From a virus (lineage: Duplodnaviria > Caudoviricetes), in IMG/VR virus record IMGVR_UViG_3300032269_000625, positions 1 through 37,179 of that record: a stretch of 37,179 nucleotides of DNA; one strand, given 5' to 3'. The notes under the pieces were generated by a model. It did not search any database. It was not told the DNA's origin and worked only from the letters and a program-made list of their open reading frames with translations. Made by a program: the position numbers and the translations under genes. Below, in pieces: positions 23,099 through 37,179 of the stretch. Within the stretch, counting starts at the first letter, position 1. Every line of letters starts with the position of its first letter.

Positions 23099-23524
23099 AT
23101 GAAAAATATAATACTGCTAACACTAGCCCTAACCCTCAACCTAAACGCCGGTGATCGGCCGCCACCTTGGCAAGCAATTGAACCCATGCGTAAGTATGGC
23201 GGAACCCAGCTGGTCAAAGTCAAAGAACGGGACGCAACCCTTGACGAAGTTAAGGCTTATGGTGATCTGGCACGGCGGGTTCCTGCGCACCTTATTTCCG
23301 AGGTGTCTTGTTATATGCCCGACTACTTGAAGGAGTTCTTTGTTAACGGCAAAAAGATGCCCGGCGCCCCATTCCCATCGGCTTACTGCTGGGACCGTTT
23401 TTATGCCGACGTTAATGCTGGCAAGAAGGTTCCCCTGCATTTGCGTCACATCGACAACTACAACAAATCCCAAGAGAAGTTCTTTAAGGACAATCCCGGA
23501 TCCAGACCCGAGGAGATCAAATGA
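23099..23524 (+). CDS. Putative exported protein
   Basis: Signal-peptide-like MKNIILLTLALTLNLNA. Starts at the motif. Confidence 0.7.
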   Translation: MKNIILLTLALTLNLNAGDRPPPWQAIEPMRKYGGTQLVKVKERDATLDEVKAYGDLARRVPAHLISEVSCYMPDYLKEFFVNGKKMPGAPFPSAYCWDRFYADVNAGKKVPLHLRHIDNYNKSQEKFFKDNPGSRPEEIK

Positions 23525-24147
23525 TTAACATCACCCCACGCAAAGTAGCGATCTACACCAGGGTTTCTACGGACGATCAAGACACCGCACTTCAGACAAC
23601 TGAGCTGCTTGAGTATTCCAAAAAACGCGGATGGGAGCCGATCTTGTTTGAGGACCACGGAATATCTGGAGCCAAGTTTGACCGACCAGCCCTAAACAAA
23701 ATGATGGATGCGGTTCGCTCAGGATCCGTAGATCTTGTGCTGACTTGGAAGCTTGATCGGATGGGTAGGTCAACCCAGCATCTAGCCGGAATCATTAACG
23801 AGCTTTTGGATTCTGATGTTGGTTTAGTCGTTCCAACCCAAGGTATCGATACGTCCGCTGGCTCAATCAATCCTGCCAGCAAACTTCAACTTAACGTGTT
23901 GGCGGCCGTGGCTGAGTTCGAGCGCGACTTGATCCGTGAACGAACTAAAGCTGGTATGAAAGCTGCCAAGTCTCGTGGGATCCTCATTGGTCGCAAAACC
24001 ATCGTGACTGAGGAACAGCTTGCCCACGCAAAACTTTTGGTTAGCACAGGCAACGACGTGACGATTCGCCATATTGCTACATCGGTTGGGGTTTCCCGCG
24101 GGACCGCATGGAGGCTCCGTCGCAAGATCGAGGACGGCTTAGTATGA
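23521..24147 (+). CDS. Small serine recombinase (resolvase/invertase family)
   Basis: YTRVSTDDQ catalytic Ser, DRPAL, KLDRMGRS, AEFERDLIRERTKAG and a C-terminal HTH. Confidence 0.95.
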   Translation: MINITPRKVAIYTRVSTDDQDTALQTTELLEYSKKRGWEPILFEDHGISGAKFDRPALNKMMDAVRSGSVDLVLTWKLDRMGRSTQHLAGIINELLDSDVGLVVPTQGIDTSAGSINPASKLQLNVLAAVAEFERDLIRERTKAGMKAAKSRGILIGRKTIVTEEQLAHAKLLVSTGNDVTIRHIATSVGVSRGTAWRLRRKIEDGLV

Positions 24148-30669: not shown

Positions 30670-33600
30670 ATGTCCTTACCCGATTTTGGCGGAACTGGAA
30701 CTGACGGCAAGCCAGAGGATAACTTTGGCGGGCCAGAACCAGAGTTCGCGCCAAGGACAAGAGGTGAGGCTAGGGCGCTCGAGCAAGAGCAGACCGGGAA
30801 AATTAAGGAAGCTACAAAAGCGTACAACTACGGGTCAGAACAAGCCCTTGAAGAGGCTGGTATCAAGTATAAGAAGGACGAGCAAGGTTTTGTTCAGCCC
30901 CGCTACGCTCCAAATAATGAATTTGGAAGATCTATTGAGTTTGGCACTTCAGAGTTTCGCGATCCAATTACGGATGAGCAAAGGCAAATAGACGAGACAG
31001 GAAAGGTAAAGCCAAGGAAGCGCCAAAACGTATCCTATCGAGCTGGAGATGCAAATAATCCGAACTACCCAAATCCATCCCGGCTATACAGGGTGTACGC
31101 ACGCGAGCAGGACGCTGGCATCGCGGATCCAAACCAACCATTTGCAGCAACCAAAGCAGAGGATATTGGAAGTGCCTTCGACTTGCAGGGAGTTTCGGAT
31201 CAGGGCATTTCATCGCTGGCCAAGGAGACCGTAAGGAAGAATAGGCAATACGAGCTTGGTTCGGCCAAGTCAGTATTAGACGCAAGAGGTCAGCAGTTGG
31301 ATGTCGAGTCAGAGACGCTCAAATCCCAGATCGACACCCTTAACCAAACGCCGATCCCAGATTGGCAACCCGATGGCGACAAGATGGATCCAGCCATTGC
31401 CTCCGAGGTTGGAGGAAAGGCTGACGCCAAATCCAGACAAGATGCAGCAGCAAGAATTGGGATGTCTAGGGATCAGAAAATTGCAGATTTCAGCTCACAG
31501 CTGGCCGAAAAGAATAAAGAAAGAATCCGCAATCGCGCCCTTCAGGTTGAGCTTCAGTCCCAGATGTCGCTCGATGAAGGCGAATCGATCTACGACAACC
31601 GCGTTCAACAGCTTCTAAAGAATGGGGCAAAACAAGAGGATATTGATAAGGATCCGCTTATCGGAGCCATCCGAGAGGGGCTGACAAACATTCAGAAGCC
31701 TGTTCTGCCTTTGTCGGAGGTTTTTAAGGATCCGACATTAACCCCGCAGGCCATTTATGAGACAAGGGCATCTCAGCGAGAAAAGGGTAGAATTGAGGCC
31801 GAGGGAAGACTTGCCAAGGAAAAGGCCACAGAATTTCTAAAGCCATTCATTGAGCAAGCAACCGACACGTCCATCAGCTACACGACTCTGGCTGGGCGCA
31901 GAAACAGACTTTCATCGGTCTACAACAAGCTTTTGGATGACGCTGATGCGGCCGACACGAAGCAAAAGGGATCCGGATTAAACCTTAGAGCGCAAGCGTC
32001 TGGGTACGCCGAAGCCATTGGAGTTCTGGATGACCAGCTTAGTAAGGTTGGCAAGCAAGCCACAATTGCCGAGCAAAGCGCAAAGATCCAAGGCGAGTTT
32101 GCCAAAGAAAACGAAAAGAGAGTTCAGCAGGAGTTGCAGGGCAGGCTTACAAAACTTGAGCAAGAAACAAAGCAAAAGGTTGAAAAGCTAAAGCAACGCC
32201 GAGGACTAGAGGATGGAACCTTTATGGGACCGCCGGCTCCTGGTGATGTGCCTCCGGCCACTCCAACGCAAGGGACGCCACCAACTCAGCCTACGCCTAC
32301 GACGCCTCAACCACAGCCCGAAAGCCCGACAAGCTGGTTCAAAGGTGGTCTCAACAACCTATTCAGCAAAGACACGATGCGACAAGCGGCTCGAGGATAC
32401 TTCGAGCTAAATCAGAAGTTTGCTTCTGGTATTTACCTTTCCGCTGCAAACGCATTAAGACTTCGCGGAAAAGAGGTGCCGATATCGGGAGGTAAGCTCA
32501 AGACAGCTGGGGCTGCCTTTGTTGACGCCATGACTACATCGCCATCTATGCCCGCCAAAGTTATGGCGGTTCTAAGCATGGTTGATAGGCAGTTTGGCGG
32601 GAAACTTCACAACAGGGCGGCCAAGTTCTTTGAGGAATCTGCAACCGCAGCCAAAGAGAACGAGACGGCAATCCGTGAAGAGAAGTTCCTTGGACTTGAG
32701 CCAGTAAGCCCAGAGTGGCGCGAAAGCGATGTCGGCCAAGTGGTCAAATCTTTGACAGAGCTTCCGTTTTATATTGGCACAACAATGATCAATCCGGCTG
32801 TCGGATTTATTGCAACATTTGGCACATCTTATGATGATGCAATTCAAAACCAGCTAAACGCGGGTGTGAAGAACCCGGATCATGTTACGGCTTTAGCTGA
32901 AGCAATCCCGGTGGCGGCCTTTGAAAGCCTAGGGAATTTGGTCGAATTAGGGCTGGCAAAGTCGTTAGGGAAAAAGTTTATCCAAAACCTTGAGAGCATG
33001 ACAGCCAGAAGCCTTCGAGGGCTTTTTGCAAGCGCATCTCTGAAGATCGGGGGAGGTGCCGTAACCGAAGGAATGGAAGAAGGCGTCCAGCAATTTTGGT
33101 CAAACATGATTGCCAAGCATATCGGCAAATTCGATCCCAATAGACCGCTAGATAAAGACGTTTGGAAGAGCGTTAAAGTTGCGATGTGGGCTGGTGGAGC
33201 CGGAGTTACCGCAATGGGAGGCGGATCTGTTGCCCTGACAGGCGCACAGAATTACCTCAACGAGCGTGGCCTCAAGAAACAGGCCGACGAAATGAAGGCA
33301 GCCACAGAGGATATTCCAGCTAACGGATGGGAAGACTGGGGAAATAAACTTCCAGAGCAAATACTGGATCCTGGACTAGCCGAAAGCTTTGGCGAAATCA
33401 GTGCTGATCTTGACGAGCAACAAGGGAAGTTCCTAGTTGATTTGGCTGACAGCATCAAGGGTGCGCCATTCAGAAGATTGCTAGATCTTGGCAAATCAAT
33501 TGACGAAAGCCTCATTCAACCCCCTGCGCTCCAGAGCCGAGCGGCCGGGATCCTGACCGGAGCCAAAAATGAGCAATTGATTGGCGAGGCAAATTTATAT

Positions 33601-36600
33601 GCCGAAAGGGCTAACCTTGCCGCCCTTATGCAGAGTGAGGCACAACTTCGCCTGCGTGTAGCCAGAGAGATTGGAGAGCTTCCAACCGACCCCATGGACG
33701 GCGGTCTGGATCAGCAAGCGGCCGGACTTATCGCGGCCAAGGTTCTGTTTGGATCTAGCGGAGTAACCCAAGAGGAGCTGAAGGCCAAGTACCGAGGGAT
33801 GCCAATCATCCAGACCGATTCTAATGGCATCCAAGTGCCATCAGAGTTTGTTAAGCAGGACATATTCTCAAAAGCACCAACCATGTCCGAACAGCTCAAG
33901 GGGTTCTTGTCGCGAGTTAATCAGGCAATGGCAAACCAGACGGATGCTGGAGGTGCTGGGGCAGAACCGCCAGAACCACCGAAGCCCGAGCAAGAGCCAA
34001 CCGGAAAGCCAAGACAAGTTGATCAAGCAAACCTAAAGACCCCACGCCAGATTGCGGAAGCCAGCGCCAGGACAGGATCCCCAGCTTTAATGGCAAGACT
34101 AGAAGGCACGACACCGGACGAGAGATGGGCATCGGCAGAATCAAAGATCAAAAACCTAGTCACCGCAATTGGATCTAAGGGGCTGGATGTAAGGTTCGTA
34201 TCCGATGGGGCAGCATCTTCCGTAGCTTTTGAAGCAGACAATAAAACCCTCCGTATCAGCCTCAATAAAGAGTCGTTTATGGATATGGAGAACACGGATC
34301 CGGAGGCAAACAACCGGTACGTCAGAGAGGAGATAGCCCATCTTGGGGATATTGCAGAGGGAGCATTAGACGCAAAAAGGCAGGGCAAGGATAATTACCG
34401 CCAACATTGGGAACAGCAACGTGCAAACATGCTTTCAAGAATCTTTACTATTGCAAAGCAGGATAAAGCCGTTGAGCAATCCGTTGTAGCGGCAGCTAAC
34501 CTTTATTTGCCTAAGGTACAAAGAATCATGAAGGCATCTGAGATGCGAATGGGCGCGAATCGAGCCGCTACTGATGACGCCTTGGTTCGTGGAGCTGTTA
34601 AGCCTCAATTCAAAACAGTGTCCGATATTCAGCAGTACATGATCCGCGTTGGAATGTCTGGAGAGAGGGGAGTCCGAGCTATGCCATTATTTATGGCTGA
34701 GATGCTCAGAATGTTAAAGACCTATGGTCAGCCCCAAACAGAGGCAAGAAACTTTCTTCAAACTGCAGCCAAAATAAGCGGGGGATCTAGGACAATCATA
34801 AAAGTAATATCCGATTACCTCCGAAAAGTATACAAAGCACTGTTTTCAATTAAGGATAGCCTGGTCAAAGCCGACCCTCAGTTGGCTGAAGACTTAAGCA
34901 ATTTGTTGTCTGAGATAGACGATGTTCTCTCCGATTCGCCCAGCCAACCACGGCCAGAAGTGGCTCAACGTAGCCCAAATGTGCCACAAGCCCCAGAGGC
35001 CAAGCCCCGCGCTCCGCCAGAAACAGGAGGTGAAAATGTCCCGCAAGCCCCAGAAACGCCAGAAATTGTCCCGCCCCAAAATGCAGGTGAACCGCCGGTT
35101 ATCGGCCAAACTCCTGAAGGGAGTCAAACAGTTGGAACTATTGCACCGCCAGAGCCGAGAGTAAAAATTGTCCCAAAGAGGACCGACACAGATCTAAGGG
35201 CTATTCCGTCGGGCCAAGTTGTCGATTTCCCAGTCAGTAAGATCGTTGTTAACGACAAGATTCAGCAATTTAAGAAGAAGGCCAAAAAAGATACTGGAGT
35301 GGTCAAACAGCTTACGGGCGAATATCAGCTTACGCCCAGAAACCCGATTGTTATCTGGCAAAGGAACGACGGCGTATTTGAGGTGATCACCGGCCGACAT
35401 CGGTTGGATCTAGCCAAGCGGAACAATATGGCGACAATTCCAGCCCAAATCGTCAAAGAATCAGAGGGGTGGACGCAAGAGATTGCCGAAACATTTGATG
35501 CTGAGGCCAACATTCGAGACGGCCAAGGCGACCTAGAGGACTTTGCTTACTATTTTAGAAAGTCTGGAATCAGCCAGCAAGACGCCGAAGCAAAGGGTCT
35601 TTTGCGTGATGACGGCAAGGGTAAGGCCGGATTCTTGATCGCCAACGATGCGGCTGAAGACGTTTATGCAGGGCTAATGGCTGGAAAGATCGAGTCCGGC
35701 ATGGCGGTTATTATCGCCTCTGGCGCACCGAAGTCTGGCGGGGCCGTCAATGAATCAATCCAGAGAGCTGCCTTAAACTACGTTAATTCAGAAAGAGTCA
35801 CCCAGCAGGATGTTCGCAACTTTATCTCTGGAATGATCGCAACCTTCGCTGATAAGGGGCCAACTGAGACGCAATCAGACTTGTTCGGTAATGATGACTC
35901 AGCTTTGGAGCTGATGAAGCAACGCTCCAAGAAGGCCTCAAAGATCCAGAAGGATATTCGGCAAAAGCTGAACGCAATGTTGAATTTCAAGAAGCTGAGT
36001 CGTGAAGGACAAGCTCAAGCTTTGCAGGATGTAGGCGTGACCATAGCTGCGGGAGAAGATTCCGTGGCCAAAGTAAATCAGAAAATAACAGATTTGCAGG
36101 CTGATCTCGCCTCTTGGGAGAGGTGGGCTACGGATCCAGCAAAAGTAAGCCAAATCGACCAAATGCCTGATATTAAGGCACAAAGGATCGATATTCAGGC
36201 ACAACGAATTGACCAAAACCAAGAAGGAGGCGTAGAATCTAATCGTGAAGAAAGAACTCAACCCGGAACAAGTGAAGGAATACAGCCAGATAGCAGCGGA
36301 GGAGGCATATCCCCGACTGGTGAAGTGGCAACGGGACAACCCGGACAGCTTCAGAATGTGGAAGACGGACGCGGACGCACTTTACCAAGATCCGTGGATC
36401 AACGACCTGACGGAGGATCCGGAGAGAACCAAGGATTGGCTGACAACACTGTTTCGGCAGGCGTGCGGGGCGGTGGAGGGCCACAACCAAATCTTGGCGC
36501 TATTCGCACGCTCCAAAGGAGAGGATCGGGAGTCGAAGCTGGGCGAGCTTCTGACGTCAATGACGCTGAACGAGTTTTAGGCGATGGCCTAGAAACCCAA

Positions 36601-37179
36601 GTTCCTTGGGTTCCGGTTATTCAGGGCAATGGAGTCAGCTTAAAAACATTTGCTCCAGCTGGTATTGCAGACGAAATTCGAAGAAATCTTGAGAGAATTG
36701 ACCGCGAGCGAGGCGGACTCGAAAACTATGTATCGAAGGCGTTAGGGTTTAATGATGTCTCCGAGCTTTACCGAGTCGTAAATCCAAAGGCCGGATCCAG
36801 ACTCAATAAAGAGCAAGTAGAGACAATCGCGGCCGCACTTGACCGGATGGATTCGGGCAAAGCCAACATCATTGGGCATGAGATGGGCATAGGGAAGGGC
36901 CGAGCCTGCGCAGCCCTGCTTTACGCAGCTTATCTTCGTGGTCAAATTCCAATCTTTTTCACGGCTAATTCGAGAACCTTGTACCCAACCCTAATGGATG
37001 ACTTTAGGGATCTTGGATTCAAGATGGATCCATTTATTACCGACCAAGACTTCGAGTCAGTAATGGGAGACGGAAATGTTCTGACAAACAAGGGCAAGAA
37101 CCCGAAGGCATTGTTCGAATCAATAACGGCAAGCAAGAAATTGCCGGCTGGCAAGACGATGGTAATGACCACATGGGAA
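30670..37179 (+). CDS. Giant polyvalent virion protein (>2170 aa, truncated): zincin-like, ParB-like and Strawberry-notch-like helicase domains
   Basis: Absent from the ORF track because no stop occurs in the window. Starts at ATG 30670 (MSLPDFGG). VREEIAH at about 34321-34341, PIVIWQRNDGVFEVITGRHRLDLAKR at about 35344-35421, and EQVETIAAA...IIGHEMGIGKGR...IPIFFT from about 36810 to 36965. Confidence 0.85.
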   Translation, partial: MSLPDFGGTGTDGKPEDNFGGPEPEFAPRTRGEARALEQEQTGKIKEATKAYNYGSEQALEEAGIKYKKDEQGFVQPRYAPNNEFGRSIEFGTSEFRDPITDEQRQIDETGKVKPRKRQNVSYRAGDANNPNYPNPSRLYRVYAREQDAGIADPNQPFAATKAEDIGSAFDLQGVSDQGISSLAKETVRKNRQYELGSAKSVLDARGQQLDVESETLKSQIDTLNQTPIPDWQPDGDKMDPAIASEVGGKADAKSRQDAAARIGMSRDQKIADFSSQLAEKNKERIRNRALQVELQSQMSLDEGESIYDNRVQQLLKNGAKQEDIDKDPLIGAIREGLTNIQKPVLPLSEVFKDPTLTPQAIYETRASQREKGRIEAEGRLAKEKATEFLKPFIEQATDTSISYTTLAGRRNRLSSVYNKLLDDADAADTKQKGSGLNLRAQASGYAEAIGVLDDQLSKVGKQATIAEQSAKIQGEFAKENEKRVQQELQGRLTKLEQETKQKVEKLKQRRGLEDGTFMGPPAPGDVPPATPTQGTPPTQPTPTTPQPQPESPTSWFKGGLNNLFSKDTMRQAARGYFELNQKFASGIYLSAANALRLRGKEVPISGGKLKTAGAAFVDAMTTSPSMPAKVMAVLSMVDRQFGGKLHNRAAKFFEESATAAKENETAIREEKFLGLEPVSPEWRESDVGQVVKSLTELPFYIGTTMINPAVGFIATFGTSYDDAIQNQLNAGVKNPDHVTALAEAIPVAAFESLGNLVELGLAKSLGKKFIQNLESMTARSLRGLFASASLKIGGGAVTEGMEEGVQQFWSNMIAKHIGKFDPNRPLDKDVWKSVKVAMWAGGAGVTAMGGGSVALTGAQNYLNERGLKKQADEMKAATEDIPANGWEDWGNKLPEQILDPGLAESFGEISADLDEQQGKFLVDLADSIKGAPFRRLLDLGKSIDESLIQPPALQSRAAGILTGAKNEQLIGEANLYAERANLAALMQSEAQLRLRVAREIGELPTDPMDGGLDQQAAGLIAAKVLFGSSGVTQEELKAKYRGMPIIQTDSNGIQVPSEFVKQDIFSKAPTMSEQLKGFLSRVNQAMANQTDAGGAGAEPPEPPKPEQEPTGKPRQVDQANLKTPRQIAEASARTGSPALMARLEGTTPDERWASAESKIKNLVTAIGSKGLDVRFVSDGAASSVAFEADNKTLRISLNKESFMDMENTDPEANNRYVREEIAHLGDIAEGALDAKRQGKDNYRQHWEQQRANMLSRIFTIAKQDKAVEQSVVAAANLYLPKVQRIMKASEMRMGANRAATDDALVRGAVKPQFKTVSDIQQYMIRVGMSGERGVRAMPLFMAEMLRMLKTYGQPQTEARNFLQTAAKISGGSRTIIKVISDYLRKVYKALFSIKDSLVKADPQLAEDLSNLLSEIDDVLSDSPSQPRPEVAQRSPNVPQAPEAKPRAPPETGGENVPQAPETPEIVPPQNAGEPPVIGQTPEGSQTVGTIAPPEPRVKIVPKRTDTDLRAIPSGQVVDFPVSKIVVNDKIQQFKKKAKKDTGVVKQLTGEYQLTPRNPIVIWQRNDGVFEVITGRHRLDLAKRNNMATIPAQIVKESEGWTQEIAETFDAEANIRDGQGDLEDFAYYFRKSGISQQDAEAKGLLRDDGKGKAGFLIANDAAEDVYAGLMAGKIESGMAVIIASGAPKSGGAVNESIQRAALNYVNSERVTQQDVRNFISGMIATFADKGPTETQSDLFGNDDSALELMKQRSKKASKIQKDIRQKLNAMLNFKKLSREGQAQALQDVGVTIAAGEDSVAKVNQKITDLQADLASWERWATDPAKVSQIDQMPDIKAQRIDIQAQRIDQNQEGGVESNREERTQPGTSEGIQPDSSGGGISPTGEVATGQPGQLQNVEDGRGRTLPRSVDQRPDGGSGENQGLADNTVSAGVRGGGGPQPNLGAIRTLQRRGSGVEAGRASDVNDAERVLGDGLETQVPWVPVIQGNGVSLKTFAPAGIADEIRRNLERIDRERGGLENYVSKALGFNDVSELYRVVNPKAGSRLNKEQVETIAAALDRMDSGKANIIGHEMGIGKGRACAALLYAAYLRGQIPIFFTANSRTLYPTLMDDFRDLGFKMDPFITDQDFESVMGDGNVLTNKGKNPKALFESITASKKLPAGKTMVMTTWE
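36209..36238 (+). promoter_or_regulatory. Internal sigma70-like promoter for the nested ORF
   Basis: TTGACC(36209-14)-N18-TAGAAT(36233-38)-N6-GTG(36245). Confidence 0.6.
36245..36580 (+). CDS. Nested +1-frame 111 aa protein inside the giant gene
   Basis: Globular, helical-looking sequence overlying a G/Q/R/P-rich linker of the host frame, with a promoter positioned for a leaderless start. Confidence 0.6.
   Translation: MKKELNPEQVKEYSQIAAEEAYPRLVKWQRDNPDSFRMWKTDADALYQDPWINDLTEDPERTKDWLTTLFRQACGAVEGHNQILALFARSKGEDRESKLGELLTSMTLNEF

Follow-up and report, generated by a model that had tools for sequence, protein, structure and literature searches.

Genes that lie wholly within another gene are considered uncommon among bacteria and DNA phages, and they are passed over by gene callers. 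We analysed a 37,179-base virus record (IMG/VR IMGVR_UViG_3300032269_000625; Duplodnaviria, Caudoviricetes), the whole of which is called the window here, in which an open reading frame (ORF) of 111 amino acids (aa) lies in the +1 frame inside the gene of a giant multi-domain, or polyvalent, protein. This nested ORF ends where the giant gene begins to encode a strawberry-notch-type SF2 helicase.

Several described systems resemble this arrangement in part. The part of PMC7314908 that concerns TraH describes it as an acidic protein whose gene sits in traI of RP4 in an alternative frame, and which stabilises the RP4 relaxosome. Like the nested gene of the window, traH lies wholly inside another gene in a different frame, but its host encodes a relaxase and not a polyvalent protein with a strawberry-notch motor. 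Binding is established for TraH, whereas the connection suggested here is by position and analogy; no sequence or fold link between the two proteins was found, and no search aimed at one was made. For the Synechocystis genes-in-genes slr0489, slr1079 and slr1082, part of 10.64898/2025.12.20.695498 reports that both frames are translated, that the products interact and that the inner product relieves the toxicity of the outer one, Slr0489S in slr0489 being a nested product that acts on its host protein. The Synechocystis inner genes and the embedded spanin Rz1 in Rz of lambda encode membrane proteins or lipoproteins, whereas inspection of the sequence of the 111-aa protein revealed a charged N-terminus, a single cysteine (residue 75) and no signal peptide, lipobox or hydrophobic segment, and its host is not a spanin.

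The giant protein is polyvalent in the sense of Iyer et al. 2017 (PMC5512222), and shares with the P1 DarB type, as presented in the main text of that paper, its multi-domain build, an SF2 strawberry-notch-like ATPase, a ParB-like domain and an HExxH motif (aa 3864). The SF2 (SWI2/SNF2 or strawberry-notch-like) helicase module of the DarB-type methylase-helicase dyad is present (AAA_34, Helicase_C_4), but the N6-adenine methylase N-terminal to it is not, as there is no [ND]PP[FYW] motif in a 5648-aa relative and no methylase Pfam match, so this protein falls outside the dyad. The main text of Iyer et al. (PMC5512222) contains none of the words "overlap", "linker" or "low-complexity", and uses "nested" only of a hairpin. 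The ShiLan domain, which is an HNH endonuclease read in a second frame of a phage methylase, is similar in its GTG start, in a host frame that is left open and reads as a loop, and in the leaderless initiation proposed for it in part of PMC11855218. It differs in being a patchy homing insertion with a nuclease, whereas here no HNH profile matched at E 0.1 in Pfam or PHROGs, the protein has one histidine and an all-helical model, and the position appears old and fixed. The 5/5 close relatives found through the helicase flank, few as they are, carry the nested gene, with no empty allele among them. No description of nested genes before strawberry-notch helicases was found in the literature searched, subscription papers and supplements lying outside that search. 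The methylase-free context and the free-standing close homologue are new here.

The nested frame and the selection on it

A preliminary description of this DNA, made from its letters only, had reported the ORF (GTG at 36245 to TAG at 36580), the low-complexity linker that the main frame reads over it and the ParB-like and helicase domains on its two sides. All of these were found as described (Table 1), the linker between the ParB-like match and the helicase being rich in G, R, Q and S. We compared six genomes, namely the window and five IMG/VR contigs that encode the nested protein at 91-98% identity. Stops in the +1 frame of close relatives, which that description had named as grounds for giving up the gene, were looked for and none was found; both the nested and the host frame are open across the overlap in 6/6 genomes.

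Comparison of codon positions across the six genomes, a check that the preliminary description had proposed, showed that substitutions track the nested frame and not the main frame. The variable columns in the overlap are distributed 10/8/38 over positions 1, 2 and 3 of the nested codons, and those of the next 600 nucleotides (nt) are distributed 38/14/138 over the positions of the host codons. The codon-position contrast gave a chi-square p of 4e-14 (the other p was 6e-10), values that are generous because the genomes are related and the sites non-independent. Read in the nested frame, the alleles of the overlap comprise 37 synonymous and 20 non-synonymous differences, with a ratio of non-synonymous to synonymous change (omega) of about 0.19, while read in the host frame they comprise 9 synonymous and 48 non-synonymous differences, with an omega of about 2.4; the omega of the downstream helicase is 0.13. 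When the same DNA is read in either frame, conservation is higher for the nested protein than for the host reading in 15/15 pairs. The giant gene was also scanned over about 5300 codons in the five relatives, in 52 segments of 100 codons and with segments of fewer than 40 ungapped columns skipped. Third-position variation is lost in only 2/52 segments, both of which lie over the nested ORF (28 and 30 per 100 codons, vs 50-88). The only nested gene detected in this giant gene is the 36245-36580 ORF.

The search for free-standing homologues that had been suggested found one, in a metagenome locus of 2020 nt (L014), at 80% identity. This copy has an ATG start with GGAGG 7 nt upstream, carries four stops in the former host frame, and has no other part of the giant protein in its locus. 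Its differences from the window fall 19/10/47 on the three codon positions, and selection on the protein therefore continued in the free copy.

The competing explanation, that there is no second gene and that the composition of the linker, or else an RNA or DNA element, gave rise to the +1 frame incidentally, can point to the length of the frame, which by itself is not beyond chance since the giant gene contains further +1 frames of 108-134 codons. It can also point to the AlphaFold model of the nested protein, which has seven helices and is only moderately confident (pLDDT 71, pTM 0.48), and to a low ESM Atlas recognition value (1879). Against it stand the codon-position pattern, the omega values, the free-standing gene, whose other frame is interrupted by stops, and the result of an Rfam scan of 34000-37179, which gave no match. 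The selection pattern and the free-standing gene largely refute this explanation, to which we give hardly any credence. The nested ORF is almost certainly a real gene on this comparative evidence. Because selection acts on the nested frame, the host frame need only stay free of stops, and the "linker" of the host is then the out-of-frame shadow of a second gene.

The 111-aa protein had no match in Pfam, PHROGs, NCBIfam, PADLOC, the PDB sequences or the ESM Atlas. When 1.84 billion representatives were searched with HMMER, a single true cluster was recovered along with two matches at the level of composition, and no relative was found in GTDB genomes. A fold search of BFVD gave no match below E 0.8, and the best PDB fold match (Z 6.3, root-mean-square deviation 2.9, 71 aligned residues) was a designed helical protein, that is, a common arrangement.

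Table 1. Coordinates of the features of the window discussed in the text
Feature	Position	Strand	Remarks
Giant multi-domain (polyvalent) protein gene	30670..37179	+	Cut by window end; host frame of the overlap
ParB-like domain	35200..35488	+	Weak match to PHROG 3264, E 3.9e-4, aa 1513-1604
Sigma70-like site TTGACC-N18-TAGAAT (candidate)	36209..36238	+	10/12 matches; ends 6 nt before GTG
Shine-Dalgarno-like AAGGAGG	36224..36230	+	Within promoter spacer, 14 nt before GTG; invariant in 6/6 genomes
TAG stop in nested frame	36233..36235	+	12 nt before GTG, kept in 6/6 genomes; separates nested frame from upstream +1 sequence
Nested +1-frame gene	36245..36580	+	GTG to TAG, 111 aa, net charge -6, predicted all-helical
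Strawberry-notch-type SF2 helicase/translocase domain, start	36580..37179	+	Immediately 3' of nested stop
Phage serine resolvase	23521..24147	+	Outside overlap; a relative precedes the free-standing copy in L014

The slot before strawberry-notch helicases

The host of the nested gene is the final gene of the window, which runs off its end after 2170 aa; the giant protein of a complete relative (G005) is 5648 aa long. The strawberry-notch-type P-loop domain was recognised by AAA_34 (E 2.6e-4) and, in a longer relative, by Helicase_C_4 (E 1.6e-17), and the helicase is 24-31% identical to strawberry-notch plasmid proteins.

A profile search of viral contigs gave 178 helicase loci, of which we used the best 80; these form 10 lineages at 65% identity, one of which contributes 64 of the 80. 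A slot ORF was defined as a +1 ORF of at least 80 codons with codon use like that of the main frame, ending at most 700 nt before the helicase, with a codon-score cut-off chosen by us. Such an ORF was present in 77 of these best 80 loci and in 10/10 lineages, and the other three loci, which miss the cut-off narrowly, come from a family in which the ORF exists. ORFs with host-like codon use numbered 82/88 upstream of the helicase vs 5/81 downstream in the same loci. The ORF of the window fits the slot pattern (100-200 codons in the +1 frame with a net acidic product, and an end shortly before the helicase), and the 12 slot proteins examined are all net acidic.

Among 17 annotated records compared (2 of 3 phage matches and 15 of 236 plasmid matches), the slot ORF is present in eight, namely Bacteroides phage BS-TP4, six cyanobacterial plasmids and Thalassospira; one record (L210) was counted as having it by its likeness to L115. 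In BS-TP4 it is an unannotated +1 ORF of 119 codons at the same place. In two other families the alignment score of the nested protein exceeded that of the host reading in 16/16 pairs. One slot family, other than that of the window, has 66 database homologues and a fold predicted at pLDDT 93. Searches with this fold found no match (best E 0.87, best Z 3.6); it is of mixed strands and helices, unlike the all-helical model of the window protein.

An NPPF methylase motif lies upstream in 16/18 lineage representatives, whereas this phage has none in 5648 aa and carries the ParB-like domain at the position where most relatives carry the N6-adenine methylase. The slot persists here though the methylase is absent, so it goes with the helicase, whatever domain lies upstream; by its position, an inhibitor or partner would belong to the helicase and not to the ParB-like domain.

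Three loci show other arrangements of the slot. In the Gloeobacter morelensis plasmid pGMOR1 (L202:1477-2941) the nested gene was called by RefSeq (WP_230844304.1), the helicase was started at an ATGA overlap behind it, and no annotation was given to the roughly 480 open codons upstream, which include an NPPF methylase motif. A slot gene with a five-fold tandem expansion of 7 residues, in which both frames are still open, lies at L110:2405-2953. In a Persicobacter plasmid (L117:1784-2809) the methylase and the strawberry-notch helicase are separate genes with a 4-nt overlap and no small gene between them.

We tentatively propose, by analogy with the systems above, that the nested gene product, which is small, mildly acidic and predicted to be helical, assists the strawberry-notch helicase encoded directly behind it as an accessory partner (a chaperone or a brake), that it is made by separate initiation, and that the overlap locks it to the helicase. 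A function tied to the helicase in any form is, on position and comparison, a little short of an even chance. Translation would have its own start at the GTG, with AAGGAGG recruiting ribosomes on the long late mRNA, with a short internal transcript as template, or in both ways, and nesting would keep the small gene inseparable from the helicase during the domain shuffling of giant proteins. A more specific form of the proposal seems unlikely to us: in giant phage and plasmid proteins, the linker before a strawberry-notch motor would hide a deeply diverged small subunit that governs the motor, keeping it off during virion assembly or loading it after injection. Such a subunit would accompany the motor when domains are shuffled, including where the methylase drops out. 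In this lineage it would have escaped as a free gene onto an island that bears a resolvase, beside a type I restriction-like locus, and from there would act in trans on motors of phage or host.

The preliminary description had considered an inhibitor or immunity partner of the adjacent injected enzyme domains and suggested co-folding. Co-folding of the nested protein with an 800-aa piece of the helicase gave a score of 0.00 and a mark of 0.32, which is evidence neither for nor against such a partner.

In another explanation, which we regard as a serious but lesser possibility, the linker is a tolerant parking slot, and a small acidic protein encoded there acts on the host cell or on competitors (anti-restriction, DNA mimicry, superinfection exclusion), with an internal promoter of its own driving expression in lysogens or early in infection. 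The net acidity of all 12 slot proteins favours it, as do the nine annotated helicase records in which the nested gene is absent, the sigma70-like site before the GTG, which is the best in the window and has its key bases kept in 6/6 genomes, and the free copy, which lies behind a resolvase and tail-to-tail with a DEAD/DEAH-box protein (see below). The slot proteins of different lineages are, moreover, mostly unrelated by profile tests. Such a protein would have no reason to precede one domain in 10/10 viral lineages while the rest of the 5300-codon gene is without another nested gene, and ours has no match to PADLOC, Pfam, PHROGs or NCBIfam. In addition, slot proteins of cyanobacterial plasmid and of phage origin are related (probability 61%, E 8e-5, score 33 vs at most 13 in 8 shuffles), so that at least part of the slot was inherited with the helicase.

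Comparison of eight other slot families with the window protein gave no homology above that of shuffles and an hhalign probability of at most 1.5%, and 69/200 shuffles scored as high as the window protein against a leave-one-out profile. A few other pairs of slot proteins share a C-terminal helix motif, and the window protein has a similar motif at its end. The motif matched 9/12 lineages, from which, however, the pattern had been drawn, and the fixed pattern matched 2/5 later cases. Common ancestry of the window protein with the other slot proteins is unproven, and its lack of detectable relatedness to them fits independent passengers as well as it fits one diverged family of partners.

Several points weigh against a partner of the motor. 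Besides this lack of detectable relatedness, the motor does not always need a nested gene, as it is absent in 9/17 annotated records, and the protein can be kept without an adjacent helicase, as the 2 kb contig of the free copy contains no strawberry-notch helicase. The survey is concentrated in one lineage (64 of 80), samples the best 80 of 178 loci and depends on a chosen cut-off. Among three single distant pairs, one favours the nested reading while L039/L040 and L041/L068 favour the host reading. The Shine-Dalgarno spacing of the nested gene is long.

Should the accessory-partner proposal hold, the "low-complexity linkers" of polyvalent proteins would in part be second genes seen in the wrong frame, annotations would lack a small-protein family with no recognised fold, and the strawberry-notch motor might have a hidden partner. 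The gene described here is visible through selection, through its free-standing twin and through a position conserved across phages and cyanobacterial and alphaproteobacterial plasmids. Cultured carriers of the slot include Picosynechococcus sp. PCC 7002 (plasmid NC_010480.1) and Bacteroides phage BS-TP4.

The free-standing copy and its origin

Genomic context was seen for one free copy only, that of L014. The gene is preceded there by a serine resolvase (Pfam E 3e-40) with 74% nt identity to the phage resolvase over 236 bases. On its other side the C-terminal end of another protein gene faces it tail-to-tail; among plasmid proteins this neighbour is matched best (29%, E 8e-7) by a DEAD/DEAH-box helicase situated before an N-6 DNA methylase, which suggests that the neighbouring locus is type I restriction-like. 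Four cluster members of the free type share their longest-contig sizes (9909, 8830, 23752 and 2287) with members of the resolvase cluster, an indirect sign that the pair of resolvase and free gene recurs. Behind the resolvase at 23521-24147 of the window come tail-like genes. L014 (417-1449), where the free-standing gene comes after the resolvase, may represent a small island assembled from phage parts next to a type I restriction-like gene. The best match of the resolvase, a Verrucomicrobiae metagenome-assembled genome at 43%, is too weak to name a host.

The nested and the free gene, at 80% identity, offer a natural experiment in the gain and loss of gene overlaps. The preliminary description had raised, as one possibility, a moron whose insertion left the host frame intact, and this part of it was not supported. 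For a gene of the L014 type that jumped recently into the giant gene, ordinary codon use predicts about 8 stops in the host frame, and the probability of none is about 1e-4. There is also no empty site in 5/5 close genomes, and the slot is filled in all of the distant viral lineages (10/10). In support of such a jump, the free copy is 80% identical and stands beside a resolvase related to the phage's own, the nested protein is unlike other slot proteins, and the nested forms make up a tight clade (88-99% identity, support 97/95) while proteins of unplaced context are more diverse (73-87%), in a tree that is unrooted. The free copy has only four stops in the former host frame, as an escapee would, where 7.5 were expected (P about 0.08, not significant). 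A one-step insertion that spared the frame is improbable because of the stops expected, whereas escape from the nested state needs nothing. We thus hold a recent insertion to be improbable and the direction from nested to free to be the probable one, and the free copy would be an escapee from the nested state.

The proportion of T-ending codons before AA, AG or GA in the free copy (4/37 vs 16/74) is within the range of ordinary genes and gave no signal of direction, and no second copy of the nested gene was found in five phage records.

Candidate start signals and neighbouring features

The sigma70-like site that had been described upstream of the GTG is present, and its placement would put position +1 of a transcript at the start codon. 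No other site on either strand of the 37 kb window has at least 10/12 matches, where 3.9 were expected from 20 shuffles. Its TTGAC, TA...T and 18-nt spacer are kept in 6/6 genomes, and in two of the six the site reads TTGACG-18-TAGACT (9/12), with TAGACT as the -10 box. The TAG in the nested frame and the Shine-Dalgarno-like AAGGAGG within the spacer of the site had been passed over in the preliminary description; two other genes of the window use AAGGAGG at 5 nt.

The 36 nt before the GTG are conserved beyond what the host protein would seem to need, since 6/7 synonymous host sites are invariant there vs 46/155 downstream and 3/18 just upstream (p 0.005). These 36 nt hold both candidate signals, the sigma70-like site and AAGGAGG, which this conservation does not distinguish. 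The invariance of AAGGAGG counts against a leaderless promoter, because this word would be pointless on a leaderless transcript, and the 18-nt length of the spacer is a further point against the promoter. Comparison with 17 other lineages showed that none has a site of at least 8/12 at the leaderless position, while 8/17 have a Shine-Dalgarno-like word 8-10 nt upstream of the nested start. Of the earlier claim of an independently expressed gene, separate initiation is supported by the selection, the kept TAG and a homologue that starts at the same residue, while a promoter of its own is only plausible: its key bases and spacer are kept in 6/6 genomes, but TAGACT replaces the -10 box in 2/6, AAGGAGG is equally invariant and none of the 17 other lineages has a comparable site. 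From these sequence features we consider activity of the internal promoter conceivable, at somewhat less than an even chance, and leaderless transcription doubtful; both routes, promoter and Shine-Dalgarno, may be used.

Three of four metatranscriptome runs gave contigs over the nested gene (36209-36432, 36083-36317 and 36169-36638, at a depth of 2.5-4.4), all of which extend upstream of 36245, and the contig of the fourth run begins at 36581. These contigs carry no strand or start information and may be DNA, the runs were picked with this stretch, and the nested zone is the most conserved DNA. They do not settle the choice between promoter and Shine-Dalgarno, and nothing firm was drawn from them.

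A GTG start and a long Shine-Dalgarno spacing are weak initiation signals, and an upstream Shine-Dalgarno-like sequence can stimulate frameshifting. These points would suit a programmed frameshift into the +1 frame that yields a truncated giant protein ending in the nested domain. However, the TAG before the GTG, kept in 6/6 genomes, leaves three codons for the shift, and the free-standing and database homologues start at the same residue. Because the TAG is kept and the homologues begin at that residue, we judge such a product to be very improbable, and separate initiation at the GTG, on the same signals, the better account. The six-way alignment showed no conserved site past the nested stop at which the helicase might restart internally.

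In two of the other lineages, which are about 50% identical in the helicase, a shared site TTGCCT-17-TAT(G/C)AT (9/12) lies 41 nt before the nested start (L041:2228 and L068:2597). It is a candidate for a conserved internal promoter and would suit a protein of the parking-slot kind.

Over the -10 box of the window site there is a 9-nt inverted repeat, TAGA-N-TCTA (36233-36241), present in 6/6 genomes with only its central base varying, which may be chance or an operator. Just 5' of the ParB-like domain, at about 34900-35200 (L006/L007:8500-8900), close relatives differ in length by about 140 codons and did not align.

The region of small genes contains, on the + strand only, a repeat of the form CGGAC-N7/8-GTT(T/A/G)AA, with an ATG no more than a few bases further on. 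The nested gene is without this element. There are 13 copies in the window vs 0.25 expected (12802, 14152, 15560, 16576, 16803, 17436, 18409, 19608, 19825, 20393, 20823, 21592 and 23077) and 12 copies in G005, and the repeat looks like a phage-specific promoter or start element, possibly a leaderless one.

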